A DNA stretch of 64,000 bases from Euglena gracilis (GCA_039621445.1 CP154954.1:23820954-23884953); one strand, 5' to 3'. Shown: positions 1 to 59,020, numbered from the stretch's first letter. Numbers and translations: made by a program. The notes: a model not told the origin generated them from the sequence alone.

Positions 1-3000
1 GTCTGAGGTAGCAATGGGGTTGGGTTTCTCTTTCCTACCACTCATCTCTATTCAAGTCCGCCAAACTTTCGACTTGTGGGGCCCGCTCAGCAAAAATGCG
101 TGCTCGTGCGCAGTGGTTGTGCCGCCTGGCACGTACAAACACATGAGCCGAGTTGAAGCTGACCTCAAAAGGCAACACAACTTAGAGCAATATGCGAACA
201 AGTCTGAAATGTGTCCAAAGAAATGCAAATGATGTCTTCACAAACGGATATGAACCACTGTCATAAATGAAATATTGAAAGAATTGTTCATAATAACAAA
301 GACGGGCCAACTCATTTCCCAAAGCATGAGCATGTCTCAAACATGCAAAAAAAAATAGATAATATACATACAAAAAACATACAAAAATGGGTAAAGCCCA
401 GATTCTTCAACAATAAAGACAGTCAGTGCCAGCTCGCGACCAGCTATCATCATGTTTCCGAGCGAGGTGCATTTCCTGGAATCCACTCCGCTTGTACACG
501 CTGTCGAAATATGGGATGTTGTACGACGCCCAGTACCCCCTCTGGTTCACGATGGACGTCATGTCTGCCACTTCCAGCAGACCTGGGGTCTGCTCCGGGG
601 GCAGAGCACCGGAAACCAACACGAGGAATGAAATTTCTGCACGATTTTTGTTTCCTGACAGAAAAGACAAATGCAACCAGTGAATGAATGGTGCTTTGAA
701 GACAGCCACCATGGGCGTACTTGAACTTTCTGGAGTCCAGATTTGTCCCCAGTGTTCAGCATCTGCAGGAGCAGCCAAGCAAATTGCACGCCTCTGCTGT
801 TGAGTGACCTTTACAGAAAAAAGTCCGGAGAGAAATCAAAGCTGGCTGCCGCGCCAGGGCCCTGGGCACCACGATGAGGCCCCCCTCCTGGAGGCCCACC
901 CCCGGCGCGAACTGTGCCAGGTCCAGCACCATCCACTGGTTGTTGTATGTGCCGCTGTTCAACATCGAGAACGGTGGCCGGGGGGGCCCGGGGACTTGGG
1001 AGGTTCCGACGGGGGCGTCGCCGTATTACGGAGGAGGTCCAGCACAGAGGCTTGAAAATGGGGCTGGCAGAACGAAGCTGGCGGCTGGCTAACCGCCCCC
1101 CACCAGTATCCCTGAGACAGTGAGAGCTGGAATGGGTCAAACCTGACACACAAAATTGAGACTGCAAAAAAAAGCAGAGCAAAAAAGCAGCCAGGCTTTA
1201 ATCTGTGAAGGCCATCCCATGTAATTTTAGCCCATTATGGCACCTTCAAAATCGAAAAAAAAGAATTCAGGGACAGAACCCAAACCCAGCGGGGAAAGGA
1301 CATTCATGCTCCCTGGGTTCACTGCCGACCTTATGTCGGGGCGCCGAATGGCTGAGAGCCTTGAAACACTGGCATCGGCGGACACTTTGGAGGACAGGTC
1401 CAAGAGGAGGTCACCAGCTGCACCAGACAGGTTGAGGATCCGTGGGAGTGGGAGGTTTATACCCCCATCACCCCCCTGGGGAGAAACCCAAGTGTTTCCT
1501 AAATCCGGGGACATGTAGTGCATACGGTCAGAAACGATGGCAATGGGTGGTCAACAGCGCATAAAATGAAAAATAGGGGTCAACCCCCCCCTTTAAGGGG
1601 TACCGAATCAGCCCAATCCCGGCCCGTTAAAGATGGGGATGAGCCAGACCACCCTCAGCCCCCTCCCCACAGGGTCCAACCTGGAGCGGAGCCAGAGGAG
1701 GAAAACAATCATGTTATCAGACGTTGCCCGGACACTGAAAAAAATGGAAAAAAAACGGGGCGGACAAGACAAAAATAAAAGGGGGAACCTTGGAAACGAG
1801 GAGGAAAAGGGGGAACCTTGCATGAAGGTTCCCCGCACGTCCGAGGTGGAGGGAACGGAGTCGAATGGTGGCGCATTGGCGGCCCTTTGGGGACGGAGGG
1901 CCGCCCCGGGCAGTTGAGCCCACTGCGTCGCGGAGCTGGCGAGCACATTGGCGGCGTAGGCCGACAGCAGAGGGTTGCGGAGGCCCCAGAGGGGCAGAGG
2001 AGGGGGGGGGGGGCACAGCTTGTGGCAGCTGACGATGGGAGGGAAGAGAATACGAGAGCCAGGTGTGGTGGCGGTCAAGGGCTGTTCGGGAGGCCCGCCC
2101 GGTGGGTGGCTGTCGGCAGCCCTGCCTGGAAGGGGTAGCCAAACCCCCCCACCGAGGTATTAAATGAGTGGGGGGAGGGGGTCTGGACCCCCCTCCCCCT
2201 GTGCAAGAAATCTTTGGGCCTTGAAAAAAGCCCCAAGACACATTTTTGCACAGTTTTTTTTATTAAAAAAAATCCCCAAAACAGACACCAAAAAATTCAG
2301 CTTCTTTGGTGCAAAGTGCATGGAGAATTCTTTTAGAGTTCTAGAGGGTGTCCCAGACACCCCCTCGGTCTGAAGAGGGGGAGGGGTCTGCACCCCTCGC
2401 CCTCCCCCGCAAACCAACGCGCACTTAATACCCTGCTCCCCACCAACCACAGCAGTTTCCAGGATTCTCCTTCAGCCCCGGGGGCTGCGTCCTTCCATGC
2501 ACCATCAAAGGCGGTCATCCTGCACCAACTCAGGTTCGATATCAGAGCAGGTGGAGGGGGTCAGACCCCCCCCCCCACACCTAAACTGCGATGCAGTCAG
2601 GGAGACCGAAATGTTTTGCTTCCAAAAATCAGCTGGAAATGCCATTTTGGTTTCTTTTTGGGTAAAAAAAAATTGGCAAGAAAAGCAAAAAAATTCGGCG
2701 CAAAGCGGCAGAAGGAAAAACCTGATCTTTGGGTAGGGGGTCCCGGGTTCGGTCTGGACCTTGTTGGGTGGGAGGGGGTGGTGCAGAACCCCCCTTGTAG
2801 TCCAGGGGAGGGGGGACCCGACCCCCTCTACCCTCACCCGGGCCCTCCCTCCTCCTCTCTGGATCATTGTGACAAACCACCCCACCTTCCCTCCTGAAGC
2901 CCGGCCTGGACGAAACACTCTGGGCCGCATCCAGGCGAGGATGGACTTCGGCGTGATGAGGGCGTAGAGGCCCGGGCGGTACATCCCGTTGGTGGTCTCC

Positions 3001-6000
3001 ATCACCGCCAGCCGGCTGTCCAGCAGGTGTGGGGAGGGGCTGGCCAGGGGGGGGAGGTCCACGTACCAAAGTGCCTCACCCCCCCTCACCCTACACCCTG
3101 GGGGACTCGTCTGCAGGTGAGCGATCGGATGGCAGTGGGGAGGTCGGGCTGCTTTTGAAGACCTCGGGAGGGGGATCCTCCCATCCACCCAACCTCGTGC
3201 AGATCCCCCAACACTGGGCTATCTTGAGGCGTTTTCCAAAACAGTTAAAGTGATTCGTTTGGAGGTGTGGTAGTGGAAACGGCGGCAGCTTTACATGGAT
3301 TGCGTGGCAGCTTTGCATTCGACTTCATCAGCCAAAATGTCTTCACCAAGGCAGGAAGACTTACCAAGACTTACAACCTTACCAAGACAGCCGTCTTTCC
3401 TGCTGGAGGGAGGGACTGCTGCCATTTCCCTGCTGCCATGGCCCACCGCCCTCAGCCGGGCCCTCAGCACCAGTCGTCGGCGGAAGTCAGGTAGCCCGGG
3501 CTGGAGGAGAAGGACACCTGCCGCTGCGTCGCCCCCCGGGCCCAGCTGTCGGAGGGGACGGCGTCCAGGGGGATGGGGAGGTCGGCGGGCACGTTGGCGC
3601 CACTGTGGGGGGGGGGGTGCAGGGTTTGATTGAGGACAGGTGCCCCCCGTCCAGGAGGACCCCCCTCCTCTACCATATTAAACGCCGGTGGTAAACAAAT
3701 ATGTGGCGAGCTTCATATCTTTCCCTCAAAAAAAAAGGATGGAACGTTTGGTTTTGGCGCAACGCAAGGTGTGAAAACGTATCCCCCAAACCCAATGAAC
3801 ACATTTGACAATCTAGACGGTCCGGCTGTGGAACATTCTTTGGGAATAGGTTGTATGGGAATTTGCATACAACTTGCGACTGGCAACGACTTGGACGGTC
3901 TGGACGCCCGCTGCTCATTGGGCATGGGTGTTCACTGGGCTTAGGGGGAGGTACCACGTTTTTTTTGCAAACTCTCAACGGCAATATAATTGATCCAGCT
4001 TCCAATGACAGGAGGAGGCGCCGCCGGGGGCATAATGCTTGAAGATGCGGTTCATGGCGCTGTACTCGTCCCACGTGGTAGGGCCAGGACTCGGCACCCA
4101 GAACCATTGTCCACGCTACTGCAGGGGGGGAACGCAACAAAAAAACCCTCAAAAATGCGACTCAAAAAGAACACAAAAAAAAACGAAAAAAAAACACAAA
4201 AAAAGAAACATAAAAAAAACACAAAAAAACACATTTTGCATTTTTTCTCCCCCCTGCTCTACTGCCACCAGCACAGACCCCGCCCTGCCCACAGCTCGTG
4301 GGGGTAGGGGTCAACCTCCCCTCTCCACCACAAGTGAATATCAAAAATCATTTGATGTGAAAGCAAAATTTGACACTCAGGGGTCTGACCTGTTGCACAC
4401 ACTGCCCCTGGCTCATTCCCCCCGCACCGCTCGTGGACCCCCAGGGTGTAGTCAACATGTAGTCAACCCTCAAAGTTGCATCCTCACCTGTTGGGTTCAA
4501 CCTGCCCCCCCCCTTTCAAGCCATTTAGCCAGGCGGCTCGTTCGTTGGAGTCAGGTGCCTGGCAGCCATGGGGTGGCGGTGCCTGGGGGTGGCCCCAGAG
4601 CAGGTCTTGGCGGTCGGAGGTCAGCCGGATGAGGGCGGAGCAGCGCAGGCTCTTCACCGCCTCCCCGCCAAAACCCTGCCCTCCAACCCGCAAAATGGCG
4701 TTGGTCGTCGCCCAAAGCACACACCCACCGAGAGAGTCAGCCGGAGAGGGGAAGGGGCACTTCTTTCGACGCCAAACCCCACCCCACCCCACCACGTTTT
4801 TCCAGGGGAAAGCCTTCCCTCGGGGCAGGGGCTTGTTCTTGGTATGGCATATGCGACCGCTGGGTCGCTTGGGTTGCGTGTCGCTTGTGCCGGACGGTGC
4901 CGTTCACGGCGGGGACCGGTGTCACGGTGATCTCTGGGACCCTGACGCCCATCCGACGTCAAAAGTGTGAGGCAACGTATATATACATATATGTACATAT
5001 ATATATACACACATATGTATGTATGCACACATACAATCATATATATGTATACACACATAAACCCCCCCACTTACAAACCCCCGGGGTTTATAGGATCCGG
5101 TTTGGTTGGTCGGCCGAAGGGGGGGGTTTATAGGTGGGGGGGGGGGTATAAGGTCTGGAATTGTTGGTGAAATTCCGACCCCCCAAAATGACCATGAAAC
5201 CCCCCCAAATTGGCAATTATCGGCAAATTTGGTCAAAAATGGCATTTTTGATGATGGTCGGTCTCAAAAAATTGCCAAAAAAATCAGTTTTTGGGTGGTT
5301 TGGTGGCCGGAAAAATCGTCCCCGGCGGCTTTCATTTTTCTTCCCCAGGGGGGGGGTTATAGGATCCGGTTTGGTTTGGTTGGTCGGCCCGAGGGGGGGT
5401 TTATAAGTGCAGGGGGTTTATAAATGGGGGGGGGGTTATAAGTGGGGGGTGGTGTTTATATACATATATGTGCACACAATAATTAACATATAATATGCAG
5501 ATGAATGAAAAAAATGAATTTGCAGAATAGACAACTGCGGGAACCTTTTCCGATTAAATACTTGATTCTGACAAAAAGAAGTTCGGCTTGTGACTCATTG
5601 TTTTGGACTCTCAGCCCCCCCCCCCCATCTGGGAACCAGCATCAAATGCCACAAAATGGGAAAAATTTGCAACAACGGAAAAACAGAGCCCATCAGACGG
5701 TCACCGTGGACAGGTCAATTAAGTCACCGTCTGCATTGAGTAGAAAAAGCTCTGCCTCGGAAAGCCACTCTTGTGGGCTGGCGAAGTCCTGGTAGCCGGC
5801 CACCAGCCCGTCGAACTGGGCTGCGGCCAGGCACCCCTCTGCTCCGTCACTCAGCTTCATCATCCAATCTGTATGTGTCAGCCGTTCCGTTATGGAAAAT
5901 GTTGATTTCAACAATACATTTTTAATGTATTATTTATCTTCAGTAATCATTTCAGTATTTTGAGTAAAATATAATAATATAATAATTTCAAAATATTTCA

Positions 6001-9000
6001 ACACTGCGCATTATCTCCAACTTCTGCTGCTCGATCTCACACCGGAGGTGGACACCGCGTGGCTCAGACACCCGCACACAGGAACAGCGGCCAGCCTAGG
6101 AGAGCCGGGGGCAGGATGCCGCCGACCACCTGCCAGTACTGCGGCGGTGGGCCGCTCTGCGACGTTTTGGGCGTCGTCCGGTGGGCGACCTCCTGGCGGA
6201 TCCACGCCAGGTTTCGGCCACGGAGGGGTGGGGCCCCGGCCAGCAGGGCGCTCCCTGAGGGGTGGTCCTTGACGGAAAACAAAAAGAATCCCGGCCTGTA
6301 TGGACCACCCTGCCAGCCAGGGGATCTCGGTGGACCTTGGGAGGAGGGGGATTTGTGCCTCTTCTTCCGCCCAATTTTTCCGAAACAGGTCCCAAGCATC
6401 ATCATCAGCATCATCATCAGCATCTTTTGGGCCGGTTTGGGTTTGTGGTTGTTGTTCAAAAAACATTCCCTTGGGGTTGTGGAGAATATTTCCTTCAATG
6501 AACCCCATTTTGGTCACCAACGCCCTCCAGGCGGCTCACACCCTGGGAGGGAGGGGCCAATACTTGACGGAAAGCCCCCCCCCCCGCCCCCCCCGGAGGT
6601 GGGGTCTGGGGGGTTTCCCGCCAGTTGCTGGGCTGGTTCTGGTTGGCACTCAACAACGGAGAAAGAAATGAAATCCAGCGGGGTTGGAATTCTTCGGGAA
6701 AAAATATTCAGGGGAAAGGGCTACAACTCCTCCCCTGGTCCCCGGCTGACTCCTGGAGCAGCTCGAGTTTCGCGTTGCGCGATCAACTCGCTGTGCTGGA
6801 CTGGGGAGGCATTCACGTTCGGAATCACTGCAACCCGTGCCTCGGGGGCCCGGCCACCCCTCCCTGGGCGTCGGCAAAAAAGCGGGCCAGCTTGGGGGGG
6901 ACGACGCGGTTGGGGAAGAACGTCTCCAGCGTGTTCCAGTAGTGCTCGTAGATGCGCCGGTGTGTCACCGCCCCTTCGGGGACCGGGGGGCCTGGGGTTG
7001 TGTGCGCTGCGCGATGGACCAACCACCCAGCTGGTTAATGACAATTTGTGTGTTTGTACGTATGTGTGTGCCATACGTGTCAGATGTGCGTTGTTACGGG
7101 GAGAGTCTGGGCCCAATAAATAAATATTCAACTGCCATTCTTGAACCATGGAAACTGAAATGCCACCGTTCAAACCATGGCATTTCTCAAAAACTTCACG
7201 TTACCAAATCTGCCACCATTCAGGGGGAGTGGGTTGCTGTTTGCCAGCGATTCTCTTCCTGAGCCTCCCGGGGTGGCGTACCCAGCTGCGAACATGCTCC
7301 GGCGGTAGCTTGCGTAGGACGGTTCATGGGGCACCGCTCGGACCCACAGCTCCCATCAGAGGTTTTTGTCGACTTCGCTGAGAAATAATCTGGGATTACC
7401 CTGGCCCCCTAAATTATCTTCACACAGAACTCTGGTGTGGGATCTGGTGTGGGGGATGCCCCATGATGTTCCGCAAGCAAAACTAAACCCAGAAGTGGTC
7501 TCCCACACCTGACATTTCGCACTGGAGGCGGCCGACCCCCCCCCACTGGTATCAGCACCCTGGTGGGAGGTTGCCGCACAGGGCCGTGCCAAACAACTCA
7601 GTTTACAAGGCGGAGGCACAACGAAAGAGAGACACACACCCTGCTCCGGCGGCATCCACTTGTGCAACGCGATGCCCCTGAAATTGCCAACGAAAAGGCC
7701 GCCAGTGCACTGTGGGGATTGCCCTGCCCCGATGCTGGGTGGCCCTGGGTTCTGGAGTGCGAGACACAACTGCCCACCTCACGGAGAATGCACACCTGCG
7801 CACCCACACCCCCACGGAATGCGCAGGTGCGCACTCTCGTGGATACCCAGCGCTCCTCCCCCCTCCCCACTACTCTCTGAAAGATTACTCCAAGCACACA
7901 CTAAACACTTGCCAGCGCCCCCTTGTGTGCCTCCCCCCCCCCCCGCTTCCAGCACAGGACCTCCCCTCCACTCTAACCGTATGGACCACCGTGCCCGCTT
8001 CCCACAGCCACCCCCGGGAGCTGCACTTACCGTATAAAACTTCAAGAAAAAGCCGGGACGGGGAGGAGGTTGAATGCGCACCTGCGCATTCACTGGGCAC
8101 CACAGAACAGGGGGACAAAGGGGTGGCAGGTACAAAGGTTCCACTTGATGTTCGTCCCCATAAGACAGCGTTACAGTGTTACAGACAGTGTTGCACTCTT
8201 TCCATCATCATTATCAGAGTCATTATCCCTTCTCCTCATCTATTTTATTCATGATGAAAAAGTCTGTGGAATTGGAGAACAGGTTGCTGGCGTTGGACAA
8301 GCTGGCATGCTGCACAACCTTAGATGGCTGGGAATGCACTATTCATTTTTGGTGTTTTTTTGCGCACCTTCACATTCTTTTTCGTCGCCATCACTTTGCA
8401 GGGCGGAACACCCGACAGGTGAAACCCGTGGTACCAAATGGGTGTCACTAATTTTTCAACCCCCATGCTTTCTTTCTGCGTAAACCAACTTTTTTCGTTT
8501 TGAAAATGGTGGTTTACCACCTCTGCGAACCAGGGAAAGAACCCCATCTTCCGAATTCGGTGAGGGTAGAGAGGAGAGAAAAAGACAGAGTGTAGCAGAG
8601 AGCAAGCGCAAGGAGGAGAGTGCTCATCAACTGTTGTCCATGCTTGTTTTCCCCTTTCAGGGAGAACTTGATCCTTGATGGAAAAGCCATTTTCAGAGGG
8701 ACACATTCATAAACGGGAGAAAGTGAAATTCACAATCATTCCTGGTGGTTTGTGGTGATTCGTGATTACTCGTGATTATCTCTGAAATTGGGAAATCCCC
8801 AAATTTGTGATGGTTCGTGAGTATTTGTGAAAGGGGCACCTCCAATCGTTCAAAAACGAGCTCCAATTCCATAAACTTGGGGCTGGGGCGTTCTTTTTGT
8901 GCTCTTGTGCTTTTGGGAATCGTTCCCAAACTGCGAAATTTGAAAAAGGAAGATTGGCAAAAACTTTGAACAAAGCAAGTTTTTCTGACTTTTCGTCAGT

Positions 9001-12000
9001 GAAATCTGATCCGTGGGGGAACAGAAAACCAGCAGGACAATCCTCACTTGTGTTGCCTAATTGTTCCCTTTTTGATACCCCGCCAGGAGGTACTAAGAAC
9101 TCTTAAACAGAAGCCTGCCCCAGTGAGCAGGCCAATCCAATTCTATTGGTGTGGCTGGTGACAATTCAAAAATCCTAAGGAAGAAACTTGTCCAAGATTT
9201 TTTTATAATTTCTATTATTTTTTCCCCAAAAAATATGTCTGTGTGTGTCTGGGTGGTAATGCCCCATTTTTCTCCCGATGCTGAGGTGAGAACCACTCAC
9301 GTGGGTCAACATTTGCAATGATGACTGTATGGTAGATATTGTAACTCATATTTAACAATAAATATGATACTTTTTTGAACAAAGGTCCGTATATATTCCT
9401 TGAGCATTACAGTCGTCCACCCAGATCAACAGAATATGTATGACGACCTTCTGGCCCCTTTTTGACCATTTGCCATTGTCCAAAGGGAAATAAAATGTGC
9501 CACGTTGAAGAAACTGTTCTCCTCTGGACCCCTGATGCAAAACAGAACCCGCCAGCTGAGTACAAATTGGATGTCGCCCCCTCCCCGAAACTGAGACAAG
9601 TTTTGCTTTTGAGCTGGAAAAAAAATCTTTTTTATTGTTTCGATCAAAAAATCTCTGGCTCCGACCAGCCAGAGACCTGCAGGCTGTCGTTGAACATGAC
9701 GCAGGCGGTTGCCTTGGCCTCGTCGCAGCCACCATAACAGGCAGGCCCACCATTCAAAGGGATGGGGGACTCCCAAGGGTTCGAGACAAGGACAGGGATG
9801 GGACTCCCCCCTCCTGTACGGCGCAGTCTGGGCCGAAAAACTTTACCCCCCTCCCCAAATCAAAAATGCCATTTTCGGGCGCTTTTCGGGCAAAAAAAAA
9901 TGCCAAAAAATGCTCAAGGTTCTAGAAGGGAAATTCGACCTTTTTTAAGGGGGGTTCCCAGGCAGCCCTCCCCCCCCCCCCCGGGGCCCCCGAACCCCCC
10001 TTGTCAGGTGGGTTCAGGGGGTGTTAAAGATGATCGCTAATTTGCATCGCATGTGAATATGTTGCAAATAACTCTAACTGCTTCGAGGGAACAAAAAAAA
10101 TGGTTTCAGATCAATTGTGTGAAACGAAGACATCATCTGGTGTCTTTGTTTTGACTTCCAGCGTTGCAACTGCCATTTGTGCAAAGAATGGAGGATTCAC
10201 GTTGTGTTCGTCCTTGTTGTTCCTTTTAACTCGAATAAATTTGTCGCAGCTTGTGCAAATGCGGTCTTCTTTTACTCGGCATCCACGCTCACGGGGATGC
10301 TGGAAGTAAGAGGCAACAATAATGGCTTCCAGTGGAGTGCTAGAAATGGCCGTAGAACAAAGCCGGCAGCGACCTTCCCCTGCAGTGGCAAACGGTGACC
10401 TATCCAGAGACCTCCTGCCAGCGGAGGCTGCGCGAGACGAACACCGCCGCCTCTGTGAACTGCGCCGGCTCTTCCTTCCTTTGAGGCGCCCGGGCCTGAT
10501 GACGAAAGAAAGAAGTGAGTGCAAATACACTCAGTGTGGTGTTGCCCATTCGGAGGGGGGGGGGCTGCTCGATTTCTGCTTCGTGCACAAAGAGGACACA
10601 ATTTCCCCCATTCTTCCCCCAAATACGCCCAAGACATAACTCAGCGAAACGAATTTAAATCAGCACTTCCGCAACCATATGATTCGACTGCAAAAAGATA
10701 AAGGGACCGAAATCATTACAAAAACCAGTGACTCACTTTCTTCAGAAAACCAGAGCCTGAAAAAACCAGTCACCCCTCCAGGGGGGACAAAGTGATCGCA
10801 TGACCAATGGCGATGTCAGTCAATGTAAACCCTCCCCCCCCCCCCACTTATAAACCCCCCGGGGTTTGTAGGATCCGGTTTGGTTGGTCGGCCGAAGAGG
10901 GGGGGGGATTTATAGGTCGGGGGGGGTCGCTGAGCTTATCCCTTTATGGGTAAGAGCGAAGCTTACACCCGGCGAAACCCCCCCCCCCGACCCCCCCCCC
11001 CCCCCCCCCCCCCCGGGTCGGGGCCACCAGGAGAACCGACGGATTATCACCATGATCCCGGCCCCGTTCCCGGAATTTTTTTTCAGTCGCGAGCGACTGG
11101 ATTTCTAGTTTCCGAATCACCTGGGTTTGACCCCCAACTCCCCGCCAGGCCCGAGTTATTCACGCGCGAAGGGGTCCAAACTGGGTAGGATTTACCCGCC
11201 CCCCCCTGGATAAGCCCCCCCCCCCTTTGGACTCTGCCATTTCGGCCAAAAAAATGTCAAATTTCAAAATATCTCCAAAATGAAGCCAAATCAAAGGAAA
11301 TGTCCGGAGACCTAATTTGAAGCCCTTGGAACGCCCCATCTACTGGTATTTTGATTTCCCCGCAACTCCCCGGCCCAGCCCGAGATACGGCCGTTTTCGG
11401 CGCAGATGGCCGTTTTGTGCACTTTTCCCTCTGTTCGACTAAGCCGTTTTTGGGGGGTGGGGGGTCAAAAAATCGATGTTTTCAAAATTTCTCGAAAATG
11501 ATGCAAAATCAAAGGAAATGTACAGAGACCTAAATTGAAGCCCTTGGAACGCTCTATCTACTGGGATTTTGGTTTCCCCGCAACTCCCCGCCCAGCCCGA
11601 GATACGGGCTTTTTTTGGCCAATTTAGGCCATCTTAGGCCATTTTGTACACTTTTTCCACTGTTCGACTTAGCCATTTTCGGCCAAAAAAGTCGAAAAAA
11701 ATCGAAAAACTTTTTTTTGCCCGAAACGATGTTTTTTGGCCTCCCGGACCCGGAAAAACTGTTTTTGAGCCGAAAACGAGCGTTTTTCGACCCGCCGACG
11801 CCCCGTTTTGGGCCGCCGACCCATTGACTTTGGGTCAAACCCAATTCAAAAAAGTCGAAAAAAATCGAAAAATTTTTTTTGCCCGAAACGATGTTTTTTT
11901 GCCTCCCGGACCCAGAAAAACTGTTTTTGAGCCGAAAACGAGCGTTTTTCGACCCGCCGGCGCCCCGTTTTGGGCCGCCGACCCATTGACTTTGGGTCAA

Positions 12001-13443
12001 ACCCAATTCAAAAAAGTCGAAAAAAATCGAAAAATTTTTTTTGCCCGAAACGATGTTTTTTGGCCTCCCGGACCCAGAACAACTGTTTTTGAGCCGAAAA
12101 CGAGCGTTTTTCGACCCGCCGGCGCCCTGTTTCTGGCACAAAACCGATGGATTTCAGTCAAAAGAGCTCCAAGGAGTGGGCCAGTATGTATGGAGGGGTC
12201 AATGAAGGGGTGGGTGTGTGCTTATTAAGAGCTCAGCACTATTCAAAACCTGGTTTATAGGATCCGGAATTGTTGGTGAAAATCTGACCCCCCAAAATGA
12301 CCCCGAAACCCCCCAAATTGGCAGTTTTTGGCAAATTTGGTCAAAAATGGCATTTTTGATGATGGTCGGTCTCAAAAAATTGCCAAAAAATCAGTTTTTG
12401 GGTGGTTTGCAGCCGAAAAAACTGTCCCTGACGGTTTCCATTTTTCTTCCCCAGGGGGGGTTTATAAGTGGGGGGTGGGGTTTACTTGTTGGAGTCAAGC
12501 ACACTGAATGGCATCCGGAAAAAAAAATCTGCTCAGGCCAAGGCCGAACACTGCGTGGAAGGGAGGCGGGGCATCACACCGGTGCGGCGGGCCGCTGCCA
12601 CCAGCCTTCCGTCAGGATGGCCACCACCACCAACGGCCTCAGACCCAACCATCCCCTGTCCCTTTGCCGGTGGGGCATAGAGTGGCCGTGGACCCAGACA
12701 GCTGCCGGCGCGACACGGAAAAGAGCGCAACACAAAAGAGAGGAATAGCCTGCCCACCCCTCAGGCTAACTTTGGACATCTTAGGACGGAACAAGGCTGC
12801 GGTGTGCCGGGTGGCGGGACAGCGGGGGGGGGGTGGCGGGGGGGGGGCCTGGGTGCGACCACCGCGAGGAGGGGCCACAGCCGGCCGAGGTCCGCGAGGG
12901 GCGTGGCGTCGAGGCACGCGAGGCGGGGTCGGCCTGGCCCCAGAGTTCGATGCAAGGGTGGGGGGGTTGGGAATCTGTCAAAAATCTGTCAAAAAAAATC
13001 ACGTGCACAGTGCCGGGAGGAACGTTTCGAGAGGAATGCCGGGTGTCCCCGCGGGCAGGTGTGGTGGTGGTGTGGTGTGGTGGTCCGAACCCCAGGGGAG
13101 TCCAGGGCTTCCAATTTTTTACCGACCCCCTCGGGGGGGGGGAGGGGGTCCGGGCCAAAAACTAGTCAGTCACTCTGAAAAAACCAGTCACCCCCTGGGG
13201 GGGGGGTCGGCCAGTGACTAAGTGATTGTATGGTCCAGGGGGGGGGGGGTCCGGAGGGGCCTCCTCAACCCTGTCACACCCCTTGTCATATCGAACGCTG
13301 GCCGGCCCCCACCGGGCCGCCCGCGGCGGGGGGGCCGGCGACGACGTAGACGGGGTGGCGGGGGCGCTGACGTCCGCGGCGGGGAAGGTGCCGTAGCGGG
13401 GGTCGGGCTGCCCCGGCAGTGGCAGCGCGGCGGCCGGCGCCAT
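1..13443 (-). CDS. Phospholipase B-like protein (Ntn-hydrolase, PLBD family), multi-exon; 3' end runs off the window start
   Basis: Family motifs occur in colinear order on short exons: [12 protein letters not shown] (ATG 13443), TM segment [15 protein letters not shown] (~12580-12935), [13 protein letters not shown] (~9660-9735), SMFAAGY (~7278-7325), [15 protein letters not shown] (~6912-6977), [18 protein letters not shown] (~6113-6215), [23 protein letters not shown] (~5705-5823), [18 protein letters not shown] (4589-~4650), [16 protein letters not shown] (4032-4079), [16 protein letters not shown] (3469-3583), [21 protein letters not shown] (2926-3028), [12 protein letters not shown] (1912-1962), [13 protein letters not shown] (868-972), [16 protein letters not shown] (441-596), [10 protein letters not shown] (~70-125). 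Confidence 0.92.
126..440 (-). other. GT-AG intron with complementary ends (possible intermediate type)
   Basis: TG|gtcgcgagCTGGCAC...GTGCCAG|G. Removal restores [14 protein letters not shown]. Confidence 0.65.
597..867 (-). other. Non-conventional (euglenid-type) intron in the PLB gene
   Basis: GTGGT|gccCAGggc...gctCTGccccc|GGAG. Removal restores LIVVEQTPG. No GT-AG; CAG at +4..+6 pairs with CTG at -8..-6. Confidence 0.85.
1963..2925 (-). other. Non-conventional intron in the PLB gene
   Basis: ATGCG|gccCAGagtgtt...aaccctCTGctgtc|GGCC. Removal restores [11 protein letters not shown], and 8 of 9 terminal positions are complementary. Confidence 0.85.
2153..2435. mobile_element. hAT-like MITE nested in an intron
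   Basis: Ends CGAGGTATTAA and TTAATACCCTG, flanks CCCCCCAC/CTCCCCAC (7/8). A related left end occurs near 33358. Confidence 0.65.
3029..3468 (-). other. Non-conventional intron with a GAG/CTC pair in place of CAG/CTG
   Basis: TGGT|gctGAGggc...gccCCTCcccac|ACCTG. Removal restores SADDWYLLDS. Confidence 0.8.
3780..3953. mobile_element. Short palindromic MITE; second copy at ~19266-19450
   Basis: CCCCCAAACCCAATGAAC...GTTCACTGGGCTTAGGGGG inverted ends and a shared internal CTAGACGGTYCGG in both copies. Confidence 0.6.
5057..5460. mobile_element. Interspersed repeat/MITE inserted in an (AT)/(AC)-rich tract; partial copies at ~10849-10925 and ~12255-12480
   Basis: Shared TATAGGATCCGG..TTGGTCGGCCGAAG and AAATTTGGTCAAAAATGGCATTTTTGATGATGGTCGGTCTCAAAAAATTGCC segments, with inverted TAAACCCCC/GGGGGTTTATA ends. 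Confidence 0.7.
11687..12127. repeat. Tandem repeat of a ~162-bp unit, about 2.7 copies, inside a larger intronic repeat element
   Basis: AAAAGTCGAAAAAAATCGAAAA recurs at ~11687, ~11850 and ~12012 with near-identical units. Confidence 0.85.
12936..13303 (-). mobile_element. MITE-derived non-conventional intron 1 of the PLB gene (element 12941-13300)
   Basis: TIRs CAGAGTTCGATGCAAG and TCATATCGAACGCTG, flanks CCTGGCCC/GCCGGCCC (6/8). Removal restores [14 protein letters not shown]. Confidence 0.75.
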
Positions 13444-13998: not shown

Positions 13999-24308
<10,310 letters not shown>

Positions 24309-26041: not shown

Positions 26042-29000
26042 TCAGCCCAGGAGCGGGTACTGGCTCGGAGACCGGAACACGGGCCGCCGTGGCGCCGCCT
26101 CCTGGGCGTCGTGCTCCGCCGCCTCCGCCATGATCCGGGCCCGGATGGCGAGGCGCTCCATCTTGCGCAGCTCCTGCTGCTCCCGCCGGTCCTGGTCCCT
26201 CTGGAGCCCCCTGTGCCGCAATGACAGACGGCCGATGAGTGCAGTGACGAAATATGTCGACAGGGGTCCTGGAGGATGACAGCAAGACAATGGAAAACGA
26301 TGTTCAGTAAGCAGTGCAAAGCAGATAGATACAAAGCAATGCAATCAGGGGCTTTCTTATGGACCCCAGGGCGTGGGAGGGTCCCGCAGGCCAGCTGAAA
26401 AAAGTTGCTGGCTGGACCCCCCCCCCAGGGGGGTTGTGGGGTCCAGCCGGCTGGGAGCTGGACCTGGCGGGTACCCAAAGAAGGCCCCCAAAGCCCGAAT
26501 TTTTCAAATTTTCAAAATCTGGAGGTGAAGGCCTCAAAACCACCAAAAATGCCATTTTTTTTGGCCATTTTGACCTCTTTTCCCAAATTTTCAGCGCGAA
26601 GCCAATTTTTCCAATTTTTTTATGGTCCAAACTTCGGACCCCCCCCCCGGGGGGATCCGCAGCCCAGCTGGGAGGTGCAGGCAGGAAAAAAGGTGCTGGC
26701 TGGCTGGACCCTCCTGGGGGCAGGGTCCCCTTTGGCTTAAGAAAACCCCTGAATGCAGTATGTCACCATATAAGACAATGCACTGCGTTGTGGTGAAATA
26801 CAATGCAGTACATGCAGACCAATACAATGCAACACACGATGCGATGCGATGCCGTACAATGCAATACAATACAAAAATATTTTTAACGGTGCGTATGTAC
26901 GCCACGCAAGCTCACTGTCCCCCCTTTGTCGTTGACACGCCAAAATACAGCAAAAGTGCGGTTGACACGGTGTGGTGTTGTGGACAAATTGTGTCAAGGA
27001 AAGGGGGGAGGTTCCCATAGGGGAGGGGATCGACAGGAAACAGCCCAAACAAAAAACTTCTTCTTAAAATTGTTCCCATGGTCCTTAAGGAAATAAAAAG
27101 AAAAAAACTCCGCTATCCCAGCACACTCAATGAAAAATATACAGGAAAATGGGCAAAGATATTTGTCATTTTTCAAGTTTTCGACGAGAACAGGTCGACA
27201 TCAGGAAAATATTGATTCCTGGCATCCTTGGACCATCACCCATGCACCCAAATAATCAAAAATGTGTTTTTCGACTCTTTAATTTTTGACCCCGTTCAAG
27301 TCCCAGTCCAGCCTTTGGTCGGCCCTTTGGTCGGAAGGGGGAGCGGTCCTTAAAGAAATAAAACAAAAACTGCCTGTCCCTTGAGGACCGCCCTGTTCCT
27401 CGTTCAAATCCCCAATTTTGGAGAGCTTGAAAACTTTGCAAACGAACCGAAACATTAACTCACTGGAACACAATTTGAAAGACCTGGCATTTTTGTCGGT
27501 CCGAAATTGTGCAAACCAATATGACCCATGCCCAACCTCCGCTCAACTTGGTATCATTTGCCCACGGATGGCACACCTGACGTTTGGCCCCACGTCCTTC
27601 CACACGCCCAGCTGGAGCAGGTGGGGGCTCTCCTGCAAGTACTGGTCCTTGATGGGCTTCAGCACCCGGGAGCGGATGGTGGTGCCGGGGGGCTTCGGGC
27701 GCTTCTTGCTCTTCCTGTACCTGTAGAGGCCTGCGGGGGCGGTGGCGGCGTGTATGCGGAAGGGCTGCAACCATGCGAGGACCGCGAAAAGAGCCAGCTG
27801 ACGACGCTACTCATCAGCTTCACAAAGAGAGTGACAATGCTTCGAACAACACGGTGGCGGAATATGTCTGCGCTTAAAAATTAGAACCCCAAGTCAAGAC
27901 ACGCTGTTGTGGCATCCATGACAATCCAGTCAAGACGCTTTCCAACGTCATGGACCTCTCTGTGTCCTGTAGAAATTGCACTCCCAGCATTGAGGAATCA
28001 CAAGCCCACAGAAGCGTTGGGTGAGCGCGTACTCTCGGGGATGTCGGGTAGCCCCTGCAGGCGACGGAGGCGGGCTTCGAGGTTGGGCTTCACCACGTAG
28101 TCCACGTTGTGCGCCTTCTTGTCCTCCATCTTAGCCACCGCCGTCATGTGGACGATGTCCCCGATGGCCTGAGAGGTCGAGGCTGGTTCGTGGTCAGCAG
28201 ATAACACAACGTCCCACGCCATCTGCACCAACTGGCCAAAATTCATTTCATTTCACGAAGAATTCAAAGACAGGGGTGCCTTGCACATTTCCTTTCGCCT
28301 GCAAAGAACAATAGTGGAGGGATCATTCACCTTGTCACCTGGTGCCGAGTCGGGACAAACAAGCTGGAGTATTGCCTCCAAAAAAGGGTGGAAGGTGCAC
28401 CAGCGACTCTGTTTCGTTGTGGGCGCGGATACGGTTGCTCTTCAGGAACGTGCGGCCGTACTTGGGCCAGTACACAGGACTGTCGCAGGCCACCCAGACT
28501 GTCTTTGGCGTGATGCGCGAGATCTTGCATACCGTCCCTGCGCACCGACAGAGAACGTCGTGGTATGGACCAGGATTCGACATAAAGACAGGTGGGGGTT
28601 GAACCCCCTTCACACCCCACCACCTCCAGCTAAATGCCGTACAACCTCCTTGCATCGAAACCTGGTGTGGACCGCCTGCCAAGGCCCAACATGTTCCCTC
28701 TCAGCCAGGTGGAATTCCACCAATCTGGGGGCAGTAGAGAGCCCTGGGATGTGGCAGGCACCCCCTCCCAGGGGGGTCTTGCCTGGTCGTGCAGAGAAAT
28801 CGCAAAAAAGAGCCCGTTTTTCGGCACCGGAGTGCTTGGTCTGAAGACAAGTTGGGCCATGTCCCTGGTAAAGATCTGCCCCCCCCACCCCCGGGTGGGT
28901 CGGGTGCCTTAAAATTCAGCCTGCTCTCGGTGGTTGTCGTCTGAAGGCCTGAAGGGGCGTGTCCCATAGAAGAAGAGGGGGTGAGGGGAGGACGACACCG

Positions 29001-32000
29001 ATCTTCTCGAAGCCGCTGCTGCCCTTCGGCAGCACCAGGCTGAACTCCTTCTTCGCCTGAAACTCCTGGATGCCGCCCCTGAGCGGACGGGTGCCCCCTG
29101 CCCCAGGAAGCTGTGACCCGACAGGCCGCTCAATTCACTGGGTACCTGACATTTCCCAGGTGTGGCATTTGAGGTGGGGATCAGGGGTATTTTGAGACTG
29201 GGGGACCCACTCACTCTCCCCAAAAATGGCCAAAAATCGCGAAAATGCCAAAAATGGCACCTTTTTCAAAAAAAAATTGGCGCCGAAAAGTATATCCCCC
29301 CTGTGGGGAACGGGGGGGGGGGGTCGGCCGGACCCACCCGGTGGGGATGTAGACCCAGGTCGAACAGGATGATGGGTTGGTGCGTCACGGTATGGGTGAT
29401 TCTGACAGACCCAATCCATCAAAAAGGTAAATGTTGCTGATTTGGTCGGCAGTATTTCGAATGTCGGGTGAAACGTTCTGGAAATAAGGATGTGTACCTT
29501 CCTTTCTATTATGTAAATGTTGTGATCTTATCTTTTTACAGTCCCAAATGTGGCTCCCTTCCAGGCAATTACCTTTGGTGTTACCAGGGGAAGGGGGGTC
29601 ATTTTGCACTTTTAAAATCTAATCCATGAGAAGCCAGGTGGCCACTTCTATTTTTTTGTCCACGACGACTTTGGGGAATGGAAAACCTTCACCCAGAAAA
29701 AATCAAAGTAAATTCCACCAGCGCTTTGCACCAGGGACACATGTGGAAAAATCCCACCTAAACTGAACCTCAAATTTCATTTCGATCCTCACAGACTGGT
29801 TTTTTACAACCCAGGGGGGGGGCTTGCGTATGGGGTGCTGACAATAGCATACCCCCTGGGGGGGGGGGTTGGGCCCGGCCCCGGCCGATCCAGGCAACTT
29901 GAAAATGGCCCTATTCGAGTCCCAAGGCTCCGTGGGGGGGGGGTGCATTTTCACAACTCCTGCAAAATCTAAACAACTGAAAAATCCTTTTTTGCTTTCA
30001 CCTCTTCCACCAGGAGATGTGGACCAATGAAAAAATCCATGGTGCACCAGTTTGGGAGGTTGAGAGATGCAGATTGATAGCAGGTGCTTTCAGAGTGTCA
30101 ACGTGACCGAGTGGTGTGTGCACCGGTTCAGGGCTCACAACCAGACAGCTGGGAAGGGCTCTGAGAGCCAGGGTTAGAAGACATGCAGAGGGACCTTTTT
30201 CAGATAAAAATTAGGGGGTGCATCGACATTTCATGGATATTACAACAGTTGAAACATTTGTGCAGTTGCGCAAAGGAGTTGCCAAGTCCAGCACGCTGCT
30301 TCTGCTTAAGGGTTCACATTACCCCCCCCCCCCCGGAGGGGGCTGGGCTGCAGCTGGTCTGGCCGGGGGGGGGGTCTGCTAGCAGGGCTAGCTAGTGGAA
30401 TTTTTTTCCAGTGACCGTCGTGACACGTCGAATTTTTTTGAACCCCAAAACTGGCCAAAAAAACCATTTTTGGCCTTCTGGTTTTTTTGAAGAAAATCAG
30501 CCTTAAAAACCCCATCAAAAATCTCACTTCCGTTTTTTTCCATGATTTTTTCCCAGTCAGCGGGACCCCGGACCCCCCCTCTCCGGGAAGATGGGGTCCA
30601 GCTAGTCCATTTTTTCCAGTGTCTATCAAAATGCTAGCCAATGGACCATCCCGGGGGTGTCCAATTTTAACCCCCAAAAATGTGTGTTGAGATTGAGCAA
30701 TGCCCCCCCCCCCCATTCTCACTGTCCGTTTTGTCAGCAGGATCTGCTGCGGAGATTATGATGGGGATGATGGCGTTCAGGCAAACTCGGTGAGCAATAA
30801 TTAAAAAAAACCATCCCCCTTGCTTGAACCGAAGTATGGAATAATACATTAAGTGAAGACTTTTTTTTAGTATCCCGCAAACCATGAAAAATGAAGAACG
30901 GAATTTATTTTGAATCTGATTTACGCAATTACGCAAGTGATTGAAATTTTAACTTGTTTGCACAAATGCGCAAAGATATTTTTAGCTTTTGTTTCTGCGA
31001 TTGTGCAATTGATTCAGTTCATTTATCCTCATCAACACATTTTACTGAAGCAATATTTCTCCTGTCAGGTACATGCATGATCAGCTGCCAATTATCACAT
31101 TCTCCCTGTCAGCCTTTTTAACTCCAGTCCTCTCCAGCAGAAAAGTGTACATTTCTGATATCATTTTTTCCGCAAAGTTTCCGCAATTACCCCGCAATTT
31201 TTCAAGGCCTCTGATACAGGGGATTTCTTAAGGACCCCTCCCGGGGGGTCCAGCCTCCGGCTGGCTGCTGCCTGGAAATGAGCTGCTGGCTACCCCCCCC
31301 CCCAGGGGGATAGGGGGGAGGGGGGAGGGTCCAGGAATGGAGGGGGCTGGGCTGGGCTGGGTCGATGAAAAACAAATTTTATAAAACATTTTTGCCTTCT
31401 CGACATTTTGATGGAAGGAGATAGATCAAGGCTGGGGGGCTGTGATGTAGAAAGCTGTGATGAGAAAAAAATGAAGGGATAGGTGACCTGGGCAGTCCAG
31501 TTGGCTGGCCAGCCTGCAGCCGGCTGGCCTGGCCTCTGGCCGGGCTGCGGGCTGGACCCAACTTTATTTCACTCGACCCCGGGGGGGGGCTCCCAGCCCA
31601 GATTTGGGCTGCTGGCTGGATTTGAACTGCTGACTGGCTGGACCCCCCCCCCCCGGGGGATGAGGTCCCCTCTGGCTTAAGAAATCCCTTGTTCTGATAT
31701 CAAATTTCCCCCCTGTTTTAAATCCTGTTGCGCATGCTCCATCCAGTTGTGAAACTGGAGTGACATTTCGAAATCTCACAGCTGAACAAAAAATAGCCAT
31801 CACATCCCTTTCGTCGGATTCCAGTTTGCGCCGTACGGGAACACCGGGTGCAAACACAAGTGAATGAAGGGCAAACATCCGAAACACACTCTGAAAAGGG
31901 GCTGAACAGAGGCATTTTTAACCAATTCAAAAAGGCTTAGATCCTCAGCCATTGGAGTGAATCAGTTGGGTCTGTTGTAAAACACTAGAATACAATATAC

Positions 32001-47882: not shown

Positions 47883-49961
47883 GGGATGTGGGATGTCACT
47901 TGCAGCTGGTTGGGTGGGACAAGAAACGGTCCGATGGGGTGGGGGGGGACACCCCCCCCACCTAAACAGTGGCGCGGTCAGGGTGACCGAAAATTTTTGA
48001 CCCCCCAAATCGACCAAAAGTGCCATTTTGGGCACTTTTTGGGCAAAAATTGGCCAAAAATGCAAAAAATTTTCGGTGCGAAGCGCCGGAGGAAAAAAAC
48101 TGACCCTTTTTGGGGGGGGTCCCGGGTACCCCCCCCCAGGGTCGGTCCGGACCCCCCTTGCAGGTGGGGGGGGGTGGGGTGGTCCGGACCCCCCCTGCGG
48201 GCCAGGAGGGGGGGGGGTGGGGGGGACACCCCCCACCTAAACCATGTACGCCCTCCTTATATCGAACCCTGGCTATAGGGTGCCTGCCCCTAACAGGCAC
48301 ACCCCCGGGGGGGGGGTAGGGGTCCGGGGGGGGACCCAGAAAATTTTCATTGAAAATGGCCTTTTCCGGGCCGCCGGCGCCTTCGGCGCTGGGGTCGGAG
48401 GGGGGGTGCCTGCTATGGGCAGGCACCCCCCAAAACCCTACCCCCCGGGGGGGGGGGGTCGGATCGGGTGCTGTGGGGTACCTGCCCCTAGCACCCACCC
48501 CCCACCCCCCGTGGGGTAGGCACCCGACTAAGCACAAGCCTGGTCGGGGCAGGTGGCTGCCAGGTGGAGAAGGCTGAACCCGAAACAGAAAAAAGGGGGG
48601 AGCCCAAACCCATCTGGGTTGGGATTCTTTTGCCACATTCTTGGGGTGAAAAAACCCCAAAGCCCTCAAAAAAGCCCCTTTCTGGACCTTTTTCAAAAAC
48701 TTTCGGAATTTGCGCCAAATTTCTGTGGTCCAGCCAGGATTTGCCAGGCTGCCAAAACTTCATTTCTGCGCGGGGGGGGGGGCACAGTTCTGATGGGAGC
48801 TGACTGAAAAAAAGTGTGGCTGTCCAGAAGCCCCAGGGGAGTAGGGTCCCCTGTAGCTTCAGAAATCCGCTGCAATAGACCCACGCTGCTGGGGACCATA
48901 AATCTTTGTGACGTGCACAGCGCGGAGACAGTGAACAGGTTGAGTCTTCGGGCCAGGGAAAGGTTTGGACGCGGGATTTTGGTTACAATTCAGGATTATT
49001 TACCTGAAATAAGCCAAGTTTGGATCGAAACCTATTCCAAAATTCCTAAATTCCAGAAAAGAATTCCAAAAAAACTACTGCCACAATCCCAACCCAAAAC
49101 CCAAACCCAACAATGATTCCAAATATAACAAAAACCTTGACAAAACTGGATCAAAAGATGAGCAAAAATCTCTCGACAGTCCCTCCAAAAATCCAGACTG
49201 GGAGCCTCTGGTTCATGTTGGGGGGGCAACGTAAGGCTGCCATTTGACTTTGGTGCCAAGCATTTTTGACATTTTGGTGCTAAGCACCGTGGGTGCTGAG
49301 CACCAGAGCGTCAAATCAGCGCCGAAACAACAACAAGAACAACCCAAGAACAATTACATTGTTAAATAAAATAACCGTAAAATGAGACCCAAGCAATTTT
49401 GTGCCAAAAAAGCTAAATACATGTTAAAGATAGTGTGGTTGTGTGTGTACGTGTTCATGTGTGCATGTATGTGTGCGTGTGCGTGCGTCCATGCTTGCAC
49501 ATACGTATGCAGAGGGGGGGTCTCTCATTCACACATACGCATGTATGCATCCGGCACACATTAATGCTCACTGAAAAGTTCAGACTGCAATGTGCCATAT
49601 GGGTGAATTGAAAAGTGGGATGAGCAACATTCAAAAAATCCAGCAAAAAATGTGTGAAATAAGCGCAACATATCGCTCGGCAACGCTCGGCATATTCCAC
49701 TCAGCAAGAGGTGGAAACAATGGATATCTGGGAATTGTCGATCGGCACCACACAGGTGGGCATTTCAGAATCGGCGGAAAAGCGTGTGAGCAATGGACGA
49801 GACCACAGGTAGCTGCGGCCATATCCTTCCCCTCGAGGCGGGCGATGCCTGCAACTGTTGGTACAAAAATCAATCCGAACGGCCGGGAAAGCAGCCCGCT
49901 CGCAACGTTCCACCCAAACGCCGACCGAGCCGCATCCCGATCGTTGCGGGGACCGGGCGGG

Positions 49962-59020
<9,059 letters not shown>

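Follow-up and report, generated by a model that had tools for sequence, protein, structure and literature searches.

The first intron of a phospholipase B-like (PLB-like) gene of Euglena gracilis consists of a 360-bp element resembling a MITE (a miniature transposable element with inverted repeats), here called Element A, together with 8 nt. The gene lies in a 64,000-nucleotide stretch of the genome (GCA_039621445.1, CP154954.1:23820954-23884953), whose full length we call the window and in whose coordinates all positions are given. This intron, PLB intron 1, is spliced out as a nonconventional intron. We consider it probable, at roughly 75%, that Element A is a copy of a non-autonomous hAT-like DNA transposon that inserted into the PLB-like coding sequence and is now removed from the message by the nonconventional route. 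The direct observations are 368 nt absent from a transcript-derived protein, boundaries other than GT-AG, an exact splicing register, ends shared with other elements and 8-bp duplications.

Four minus-strand open frames from a scan of the window matched Pfam Phospholip_B, and searching with one of them retrieved P0001 (eukprot:EG_transcript_4564, 664 aa; PF04916, phospholipase B). By tblastn, P0001 aligns to the minus strand in 18 pieces, which run from 13443 to 47 and are mostly 100% identical. Residues 1-47 correspond to 13443-13303 (residue 47 at 13305-13303), and the match resumes with residue 48 (GRPRLACLD...) from 12934. An exact spliced walk requires the removal of 368 nt to reproduce P0001, which is evidence at the protein level. 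The start of the gene is thus arranged as follows.

13304-13443, minus strand: coding part of PLB exon 1, Met at 13443-13441, residues 1-47 (...RWGP), 100% identity to P0001 by tblastn; spliced walk.
12936-13303, minus strand: PLB intron 1, a 368-nt nonconventional intron, GGC-CAG...CTG-GGGCC↓A (↓, junction with the exon); spliced walk and register analysis.
12855-12935, minus strand: PLB exon 2, residues 48-74, identical by tblastn from residue 48 on within the high-scoring segment pair 36-72; spliced walk.

Nine boundary pairs are equivalent at the protein level, none of which provides a GT/GC-AG intron. Only one of them, 13303/12936, gives CAG at +4 to +6 and CTG at -8 to -6. Knock-in experiments have defined the code of such introns as 5'-N3CDG-/-CH'GN5-6↓R, with a donor spacer of strictly 3 nt and a preferred acceptor spacer of 5 nt (Nomura et al. 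2025, PMC12501133). PLB intron 1 matches this code exactly: at the 13303→12936 junction, N3 is GGC, the triplets are CAG and CTG and complementary to each other, N5 is GGGCC and the first exonic base is A, a purine. The original prediction, made from the sequence alone, had joined 13304 to 12935 and proposed offsets of +4 and -6. P0001, which skips the element plus 8 nt, supports that join at the protein level, and the offsets are exact at 13303/12936, in agreement with the published code. Also present is the minus-strand identity it had noted between the final 5 nt of exon 1 (13308-13304, GGGCC) and those of the intron (12940-12936). The terminal stem appears in the minimum-energy fold of the intron RNA, for which the whole-molecule z-score of -1.0 is not informative.

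The intron breaks down into the element and one copy's length of its flanking repeat.

12941-13300, no strand assigned: Element A, 360 bp, MITE-like, running from CAG to CTG, with inverted ends and abundant G-run/C-run hairpins; element plus 8 equals the intron length.
13286-13300, minus strand: inverted end on the intron 5' side, CAGCGTTCGATATGA, 13/15 to the consensus.
12941-12955, plus strand: inverted end on the intron 3' side, CAGAGTTCGATGCAA, 12/15 to the consensus.
13301-13308, minus strand: upstream (gene-sense) copy of the duplication, GGGCCGGC; 5 nt are exonic and the final three (GGC, 13303-13301) form the N3 spacer.
12933-12940, minus strand: downstream copy of the duplication, GGGCCAGG; 12940-12936 is the N5 spacer, and AGG (12935-12933) opens exon 2.

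Read along the plus strand, the layout is CCTGGCCC (12933-12940), CAGAGTTCGATGCAA...TCATATCGAACGCTG (12941-13300) and GCCGGCCC (13301-13308). The terminal inverted repeats claimed for this intron are present, at 12941-12955 (+) and 13300-13286 (-), and the arms 12940-12951 and 13290-13301 pair over 12 nt with 92% complementarity. No coding capacity was seen in Element A. The 368-nt intron equals the 360-bp element plus 8 nt, which is the length of the flanking duplication (6/8 match). The message retains 5 nt from the start of the upstream 8-mer and 3 nt from the end of the downstream one, which together make a single GGGCCAGG, and the first base of the AGG that opens exon 2 is the required purine. 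Both mismatches between the two 8-mers fall within the three upstream positions that are intronic and, for that reason, unconstrained.

These features suggest the following course of events. A hAT-like element, with CAG...CTG tips and inverted ends of about 12-15 nt, would have entered the exon and duplicated 8 bp. In the pre-mRNA the inverted ends would pair, CCAG.CGUUCGAU with AUCGAAC.CUGG, and the nonconventional system would cut 3 nt upstream of CAG and 5 nt downstream of CTG. Because 3 + 5 = 8, the element and exactly one duplication would leave, so that the message would read as before the insertion, with its reading frame restored. The orientation of the element should not matter, because its ends are symmetric, whereas a purine at position 6 of the sense-strand 8-mer should matter for splicing. 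Elements with the same ends would also have landed in existing introns or in sequence without a recognised gene, where no splicing is needed. Arrival by transposition, through a hAT-type transposase, is what we infer; the role of the hairpin as splice signal is suggested by analogy with the published knock-in work.

Elements of the hAT superfamily are recognised by an 8-bp duplication and by YARNG tips, for example CAGGG or CAGAG. Both are seen in the group of elements described below. MITEs of the Ac/hobo/Tol2 type resemble this group in their 8-bp duplication, their short CAGGG/CAGAG inverted ends, their size (94-421 bp here), their lack of coding capacity and their heterogeneous interiors under common ends. 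Unlike the hAT superfamily at large, no autonomous partner or transposase was seen in the window, and the assignment is drawn from the duplication length and the tip motif.

The ends of Element A recur elsewhere in the window. We call the elements that carry them the end-group. It comprises at least seven copies in 64 kb, none with two exact ends: A, B, C and E have two ends, and D, F and G have one recognisable end. One copy, E, lies in a second gene, the DUF4336 gene, which encodes P0003 (EG_transcript_20317, PF14234) on the minus strand from 59020 to 49965.

19721-20075, plus strand: copy B, 355 bp, right end exact, left end degenerate (CAGGGTTCAACCAAA), 249 bits; flanks CTCCTCCT (19713-19720) and CTCCTCCC (20076-20083), 7/8.
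28571-28664, plus strand: copy C, 94 bp, an internal-deletion derivative with both ends kept; flanks GTATGGAC (28563-28570) and GTGTGGAC (28665-28672), 7/8.
47916-48271, plus strand: copy D, right end exact (48257-48271), left end degenerate and adjoining a 19-nt tandem array, interior near G and B, 306 bits.
58152-58572, plus strand: copy E, 421 bp, left end exact, right end with 4 mismatches, inside DUF4336 intron 1 (58909→58100); flanks GAGGGGGT and GGGGGGGG, 6/8, within a G run.
9775-10055, plus strand: copy F, left end AAGGGTTCGAGACAA (3 mismatches), right side truncated, inside PLB intron 4 (10405→9737), 199 bits.
2531-2862, plus strand: copy G, left end minus one base, right end missing, inside PLB intron 14 (2925→1963), 280 bits.

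Copies E, F and G sit within longer introns whose own ends are elsewhere. This bears out the proposal that the same ends occur both on a whole intron, PLB intron 1 being Element A plus 8, and on passengers inside other introns. The four further motif sites of the original prediction were also recovered: those at 48257-48271 and 58152 are exact, that at 9775 has 3 mismatches and that at 2531 lacks one base; copy C was absent from its listing. Its element at 19721-20075, our copy B, does have the 7/8 flanks. The nesting described for it finds no support here, no gene being recognised around copy B, nor around C or D. An open frame close to copy B (20175-20522, minus strand) has a coding look to the eye, but gave no Pfam match and no relative among proteins of 204-2000 residues or among 1.84 billion representatives.

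Two copies were considered as whole introns in their own right. Removing 102 nt at copy C would keep the frame of an open frame at 28173-28844 (plus strand), but nothing protein-like is encoded there. For copy E, the mapping of P0003 puts the start of exon 2 at 58099, leaving E nested within the intron. Partnerless single ends were seen at 3620-3660 on the plus strand (CAGGGTTTGATTGAGGACAGG at 3620, in PLB intron 12), 51207, 56877 and 44648, and are probably fragments of further copies.

To what extent could the likeness of the ends be due to chance? A strict consensus, CAGGGTTCGAYATAA, was built without Element A. It has 10 matches in the window at ≤3 mismatches, against an average of 2.26 in dinucleotide shuffles, and none of 100 shuffles reached 10. 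The motif is thus enriched in the window.

PLB intron 1 could still be an ordinary nonconventional intron that came to look like the repeats by convergence or chance, since CAG...CTG and paired ends are required of such introns anyway. No homology of the interior of Element A to any copy can be demonstrated, many of the other mapped introns possess their own inverted ends starting with CAG or CAGAG, and the published consensus CCAGG...CCTG (PMC11170887) makes the first four to five bases of the motif generic. However, the published code asks just for CAG/CTG and the spacers (PMC12501133), while Element A carries GTTCGAT, 7 nt, beyond CAG at both ends. In addition, GATGCAAGG, which continues its 12941-12955 end, is common to the right end of copy C. 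When ends were scored across 18 introns, a set without six further DUF4336 introns, PLB intron 1 alone was family-like (13/15 and 12/15), and the other 17 reached at most 9/15. Finally, the intron is the element plus 8, with flanks that match at 6/8 in a register fitting B and C. We therefore regard convergence as unlikely, and favour insertion of a hAT-like element.

The 8-bp flank repeats match at 6/8 in A, 7/8 in B, 7/8 in C and 6/8 in E. Among 200,000 random pairs of window positions, 8-nt flanks match at ≥6/8 with a frequency of 0.0072 and at ≥7/8 with a frequency of 0.0011. Across 21 nonconventional introns examined in the 3/5 register, 2 reached ≥6/8, where about 0.15 would be expected; PLB intron 5 matched at 6/8 and PLB intron 11 at 5/8.

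Junction repeats of this length have been interpreted in another way. In a newly gained nonconventional intron of the Euglena agilis gapC gene, eight-nucleotide direct repeats at the junctions were ascribed to double-strand-break repair (Milanowski et al. 2016, PMC4770533), and the repeat at PLB intron 1 could likewise be the scar of a repair event that captured filler DNA. Four unrelated sites that share their inverted ends, or a repeat length of 8 bp, are not what break repair would lead one to expect, and we give this explanation very little credence. The gapC intron is also an independent published instance of 8-nt repeats at such an intron, and in that respect speaks for the insertion reading.

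The direction of descent could also be the reverse, with nonconventional introns giving rise to the repeats after spreading as excised circles of RNA that were reverse-transcribed and re-inserted. Release of full-length circles has been reported for nonconventional introns (cited in the review PMC11282704), and the open frames of the window yielded no transposase. On the other hand, a circle would bring the 3 + 5 nt of its donor along, whereas B and C each have their own, different 8-bp flank repeat, the mark of a staggered DNA cut. Relative to host genes, both orientations are represented among the copies, some of which lie outside any recognised gene. A circle origin is quite improbable on these grounds, if a little less so than break repair, and we retain transposition of a DNA element as the preferred explanation.

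The original prediction had spoken of one family. This stands for the ends, the size and the duplication length, but homology of the interior could not be demonstrated. The interior is well conserved among copies B, D, F and G, which score 199-306 bits against the profile built from them (pairwise z of 3 to 33). Their profile aligns with 12979-13117 of Element A at a window-wide E of 6e-4, and the interior of Element A with its ends removed scores 10.7 bits, a value reached by 1 of 1,000 dinucleotide shuffles. The same profile gives 13.7-20.5 bits on different-ended repeats in PLB introns 3 and 9 and DUF4336 intron 2. Because these score as high or higher, the profile similarity of Element A reflects a module common to several repeat families. 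The orientation of Element A within the group depends on the measure, its end types pointing to minus and the profile alignment to plus, and the core is partly palindromic. As judged by alignment, A, and likewise E, belongs to the same end-group and lies outside the B/D/F/G sequence family. A was probably served by the same transposase as the rest of the end-group.

Several observations weigh against a transposon origin of PLB intron 1, or reduce the force of the evidence for it. Searched by blastn at E<1e-6, the window contains no match to the interior of Element A other than itself, the local alignments of Element A with B-G are not significant (z ≤2.7), and its profile similarity (10.7-12.9 bits) is no better than that of different-ended repeats. 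Its duplication matches at just 6/8, and that of copy E, sitting in a G run, says little. Most other mapped nonconventional introns match at just 1-4/8 in the 8-mer register, as would be expected if they are old or arose otherwise. The join of 13304 to 12935 is drawn from one protein predicted from a transcript assembly, and at the exact nucleotide junction protein evidence leaves CCA and CCG for Pro47 undistinguished. A few residues of P0001 in other places, exon 8 among them, do not agree with the window. No transposase was found by Pfam among 117 + 145 + 10 open frames of the window, which is weak evidence, as it covers 64 kb only.

Nonconventional introns account for 71.8% of the introns of Euglena agilis (PMC12501133). 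A MITE origin for them was proposed in 2014 (PMC3935182) and restated as a hypothesis in a 2024 review (PMC11282704) and a 2025 PNAS discussion. It is still a hypothesis in a December 2025 paper on diplonemids (PMC12621601); the literature up to that date calls the origin of these introns unclear and treats MITE-like insertion as a plausible source. Our literature search covered openly readable papers without their supplements; none that it found gives a Euglena MITE family a name, describes copies outside introns or ties the 3 + 5 spacers to an 8-bp duplication. PLB intron 1 resembles the described euglenid nonconventional introns (Milanowski et al. 2014, 2016; Nomura et al. 2025) in its non-GT-AG boundaries, CAG/CTG pairing, 3- and 5-nt spacers, purine at exon +1, junction-blurring direct repeat and inverted ends. 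Unlike them, it is tied to a repeated end-group, other copies of which are not whole introns and have 8-bp duplications.

A further comparison is provided by the introners of Micromonas, Aureococcus and dinoflagellates. There, as proposed for Element A, a DNA transposon with inverted ends and a target duplication becomes an intron on insertion, the duplication provides a part of the removed sequence and the message is restored. Introners, however, build spliceosomal GT/GC-AG sites from element and duplication, whereas Element A lacks such sites and fits the nonconventional code. Introners also yield many near-identical introns, against one whole-intron copy in this window, where 1 of the 18 scored introns has these ends. 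Element A is introner-like in its working, yet not spliceosomal.

The remainder of the window provides the setting for these observations. It has a G+C content of about 53%, is rich in G and C runs and is without prokaryotic gene structure; the matches to P0001 and P0003 mark it as nuclear DNA of Euglena gracilis type. The PLB-like gene (47-13443, minus strand) extends over more than 13 kb and has 18 coding exons, with 16 introns resolved. Fifteen of these 16 are non-GT-AG, six of the 15 having CAG/CTG in the +4/-6 register; the sole GT-AG intron is intron 3 (12579→10496), which starts with GTGTG. In exon 8 (6112-6219, minus strand) the window encodes NLAWI where P0001 has NLVWL, with two more differing residues before it, while the neighbouring exons are identical. 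Because of this difference, PLB intron 7 cannot be placed exactly. The residue differences suggest that the transcripts may come from another allele or a paralogous copy. A sub-threshold match to Peptidase_G2, the only Pfam match in 10 minus-strand frames, falls in a tandem repeat.

Other introns contain repeats with different ends. PLB intron 5 (7352-9660, minus strand; 2,309 nt) has its own inverted ends, CAGAGATTTTTTGATCGA and CAGAGGTTTTTGTCGAC, of the form CAGAG(A/G)TTTTT, and an 8-mer flank repeat in the same 3/5 register (GTCGGAGC/ATGGGAGC, 6/8); it may represent another intron born of a transposon, larger than PLB intron 1 and belonging to a different end-group. A MITE-like element at 57450-57930, with ends of about ACATCTCTTTAAGG...CCTTAGAGAGATGT, is nested in DUF4336 intron 2 (58015→57284). 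It shares with the CAGGGTTCGA group an A/T-rich core module (AAAATGCC..TTTTGGCC..GCGC; 20.5 bits). At 26350-26750 and 30300-30700, G-run/C-run hairpins surround the same core module, yet have other ends, for example GGCTTTCTTATGGACCCC, so that one interior module seems common to several end-groups.

Two further pairs of stretches link the introns of the PLB-like gene. A 208-bp stretch of intron 3 (12256-12460) is 89% identical to one in intron 9 (5147-5354), and an 88-bp stretch at 10839-10926 is about 90% identical to 5062-5144; these are a different repeat family nested in two PLB introns. Intron 3 also holds 2.8 tandem copies of a 162-bp unit, 97% identical (11684-12132), which adjoin a 218-bp unit present twice (11262-11695). 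Within an intron of the DUF4336 gene, at 50873-51046, there is a run of about 150 G with a purity of 85%.

What these results add to the MITE-origin idea is a concrete locus at which intron borders are transposon ends plus a duplication, with neighbours that have the same ends and 8-bp duplications and are not introns themselves. Both the end-group with intronic and non-intronic copies and the equality of the 3 + 5 spacers with the 8-bp duplication are provisional additions made here. The 3 + 5 = 8 rule explains how the message is restored, and why young introns have junctions that can be placed with an ambiguity of up to 8 nt. It also makes the origin of these introns a matter for a census of genome and RNA sequencing data.

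We put forward tentatively, and at somewhat less than even odds, a broader proposal: that the nonconventional code mirrors hAT-type insertion, that the bulk of Euglena nonconventional introns are decayed insertions and that the excision machinery evolved around the geometry of transposon ends. If this is true, the 3- and 5-nt spacers would sum to the 8-bp duplication and the CAG(G/A)G tips would be the transposon's own ends. Any element that landed in an exon would be removed together with one duplication, in either orientation, given a purine at position 6 of the 8-mer. In its boldest form, the excision machinery would derive from the transposon's own end-recognising protein.

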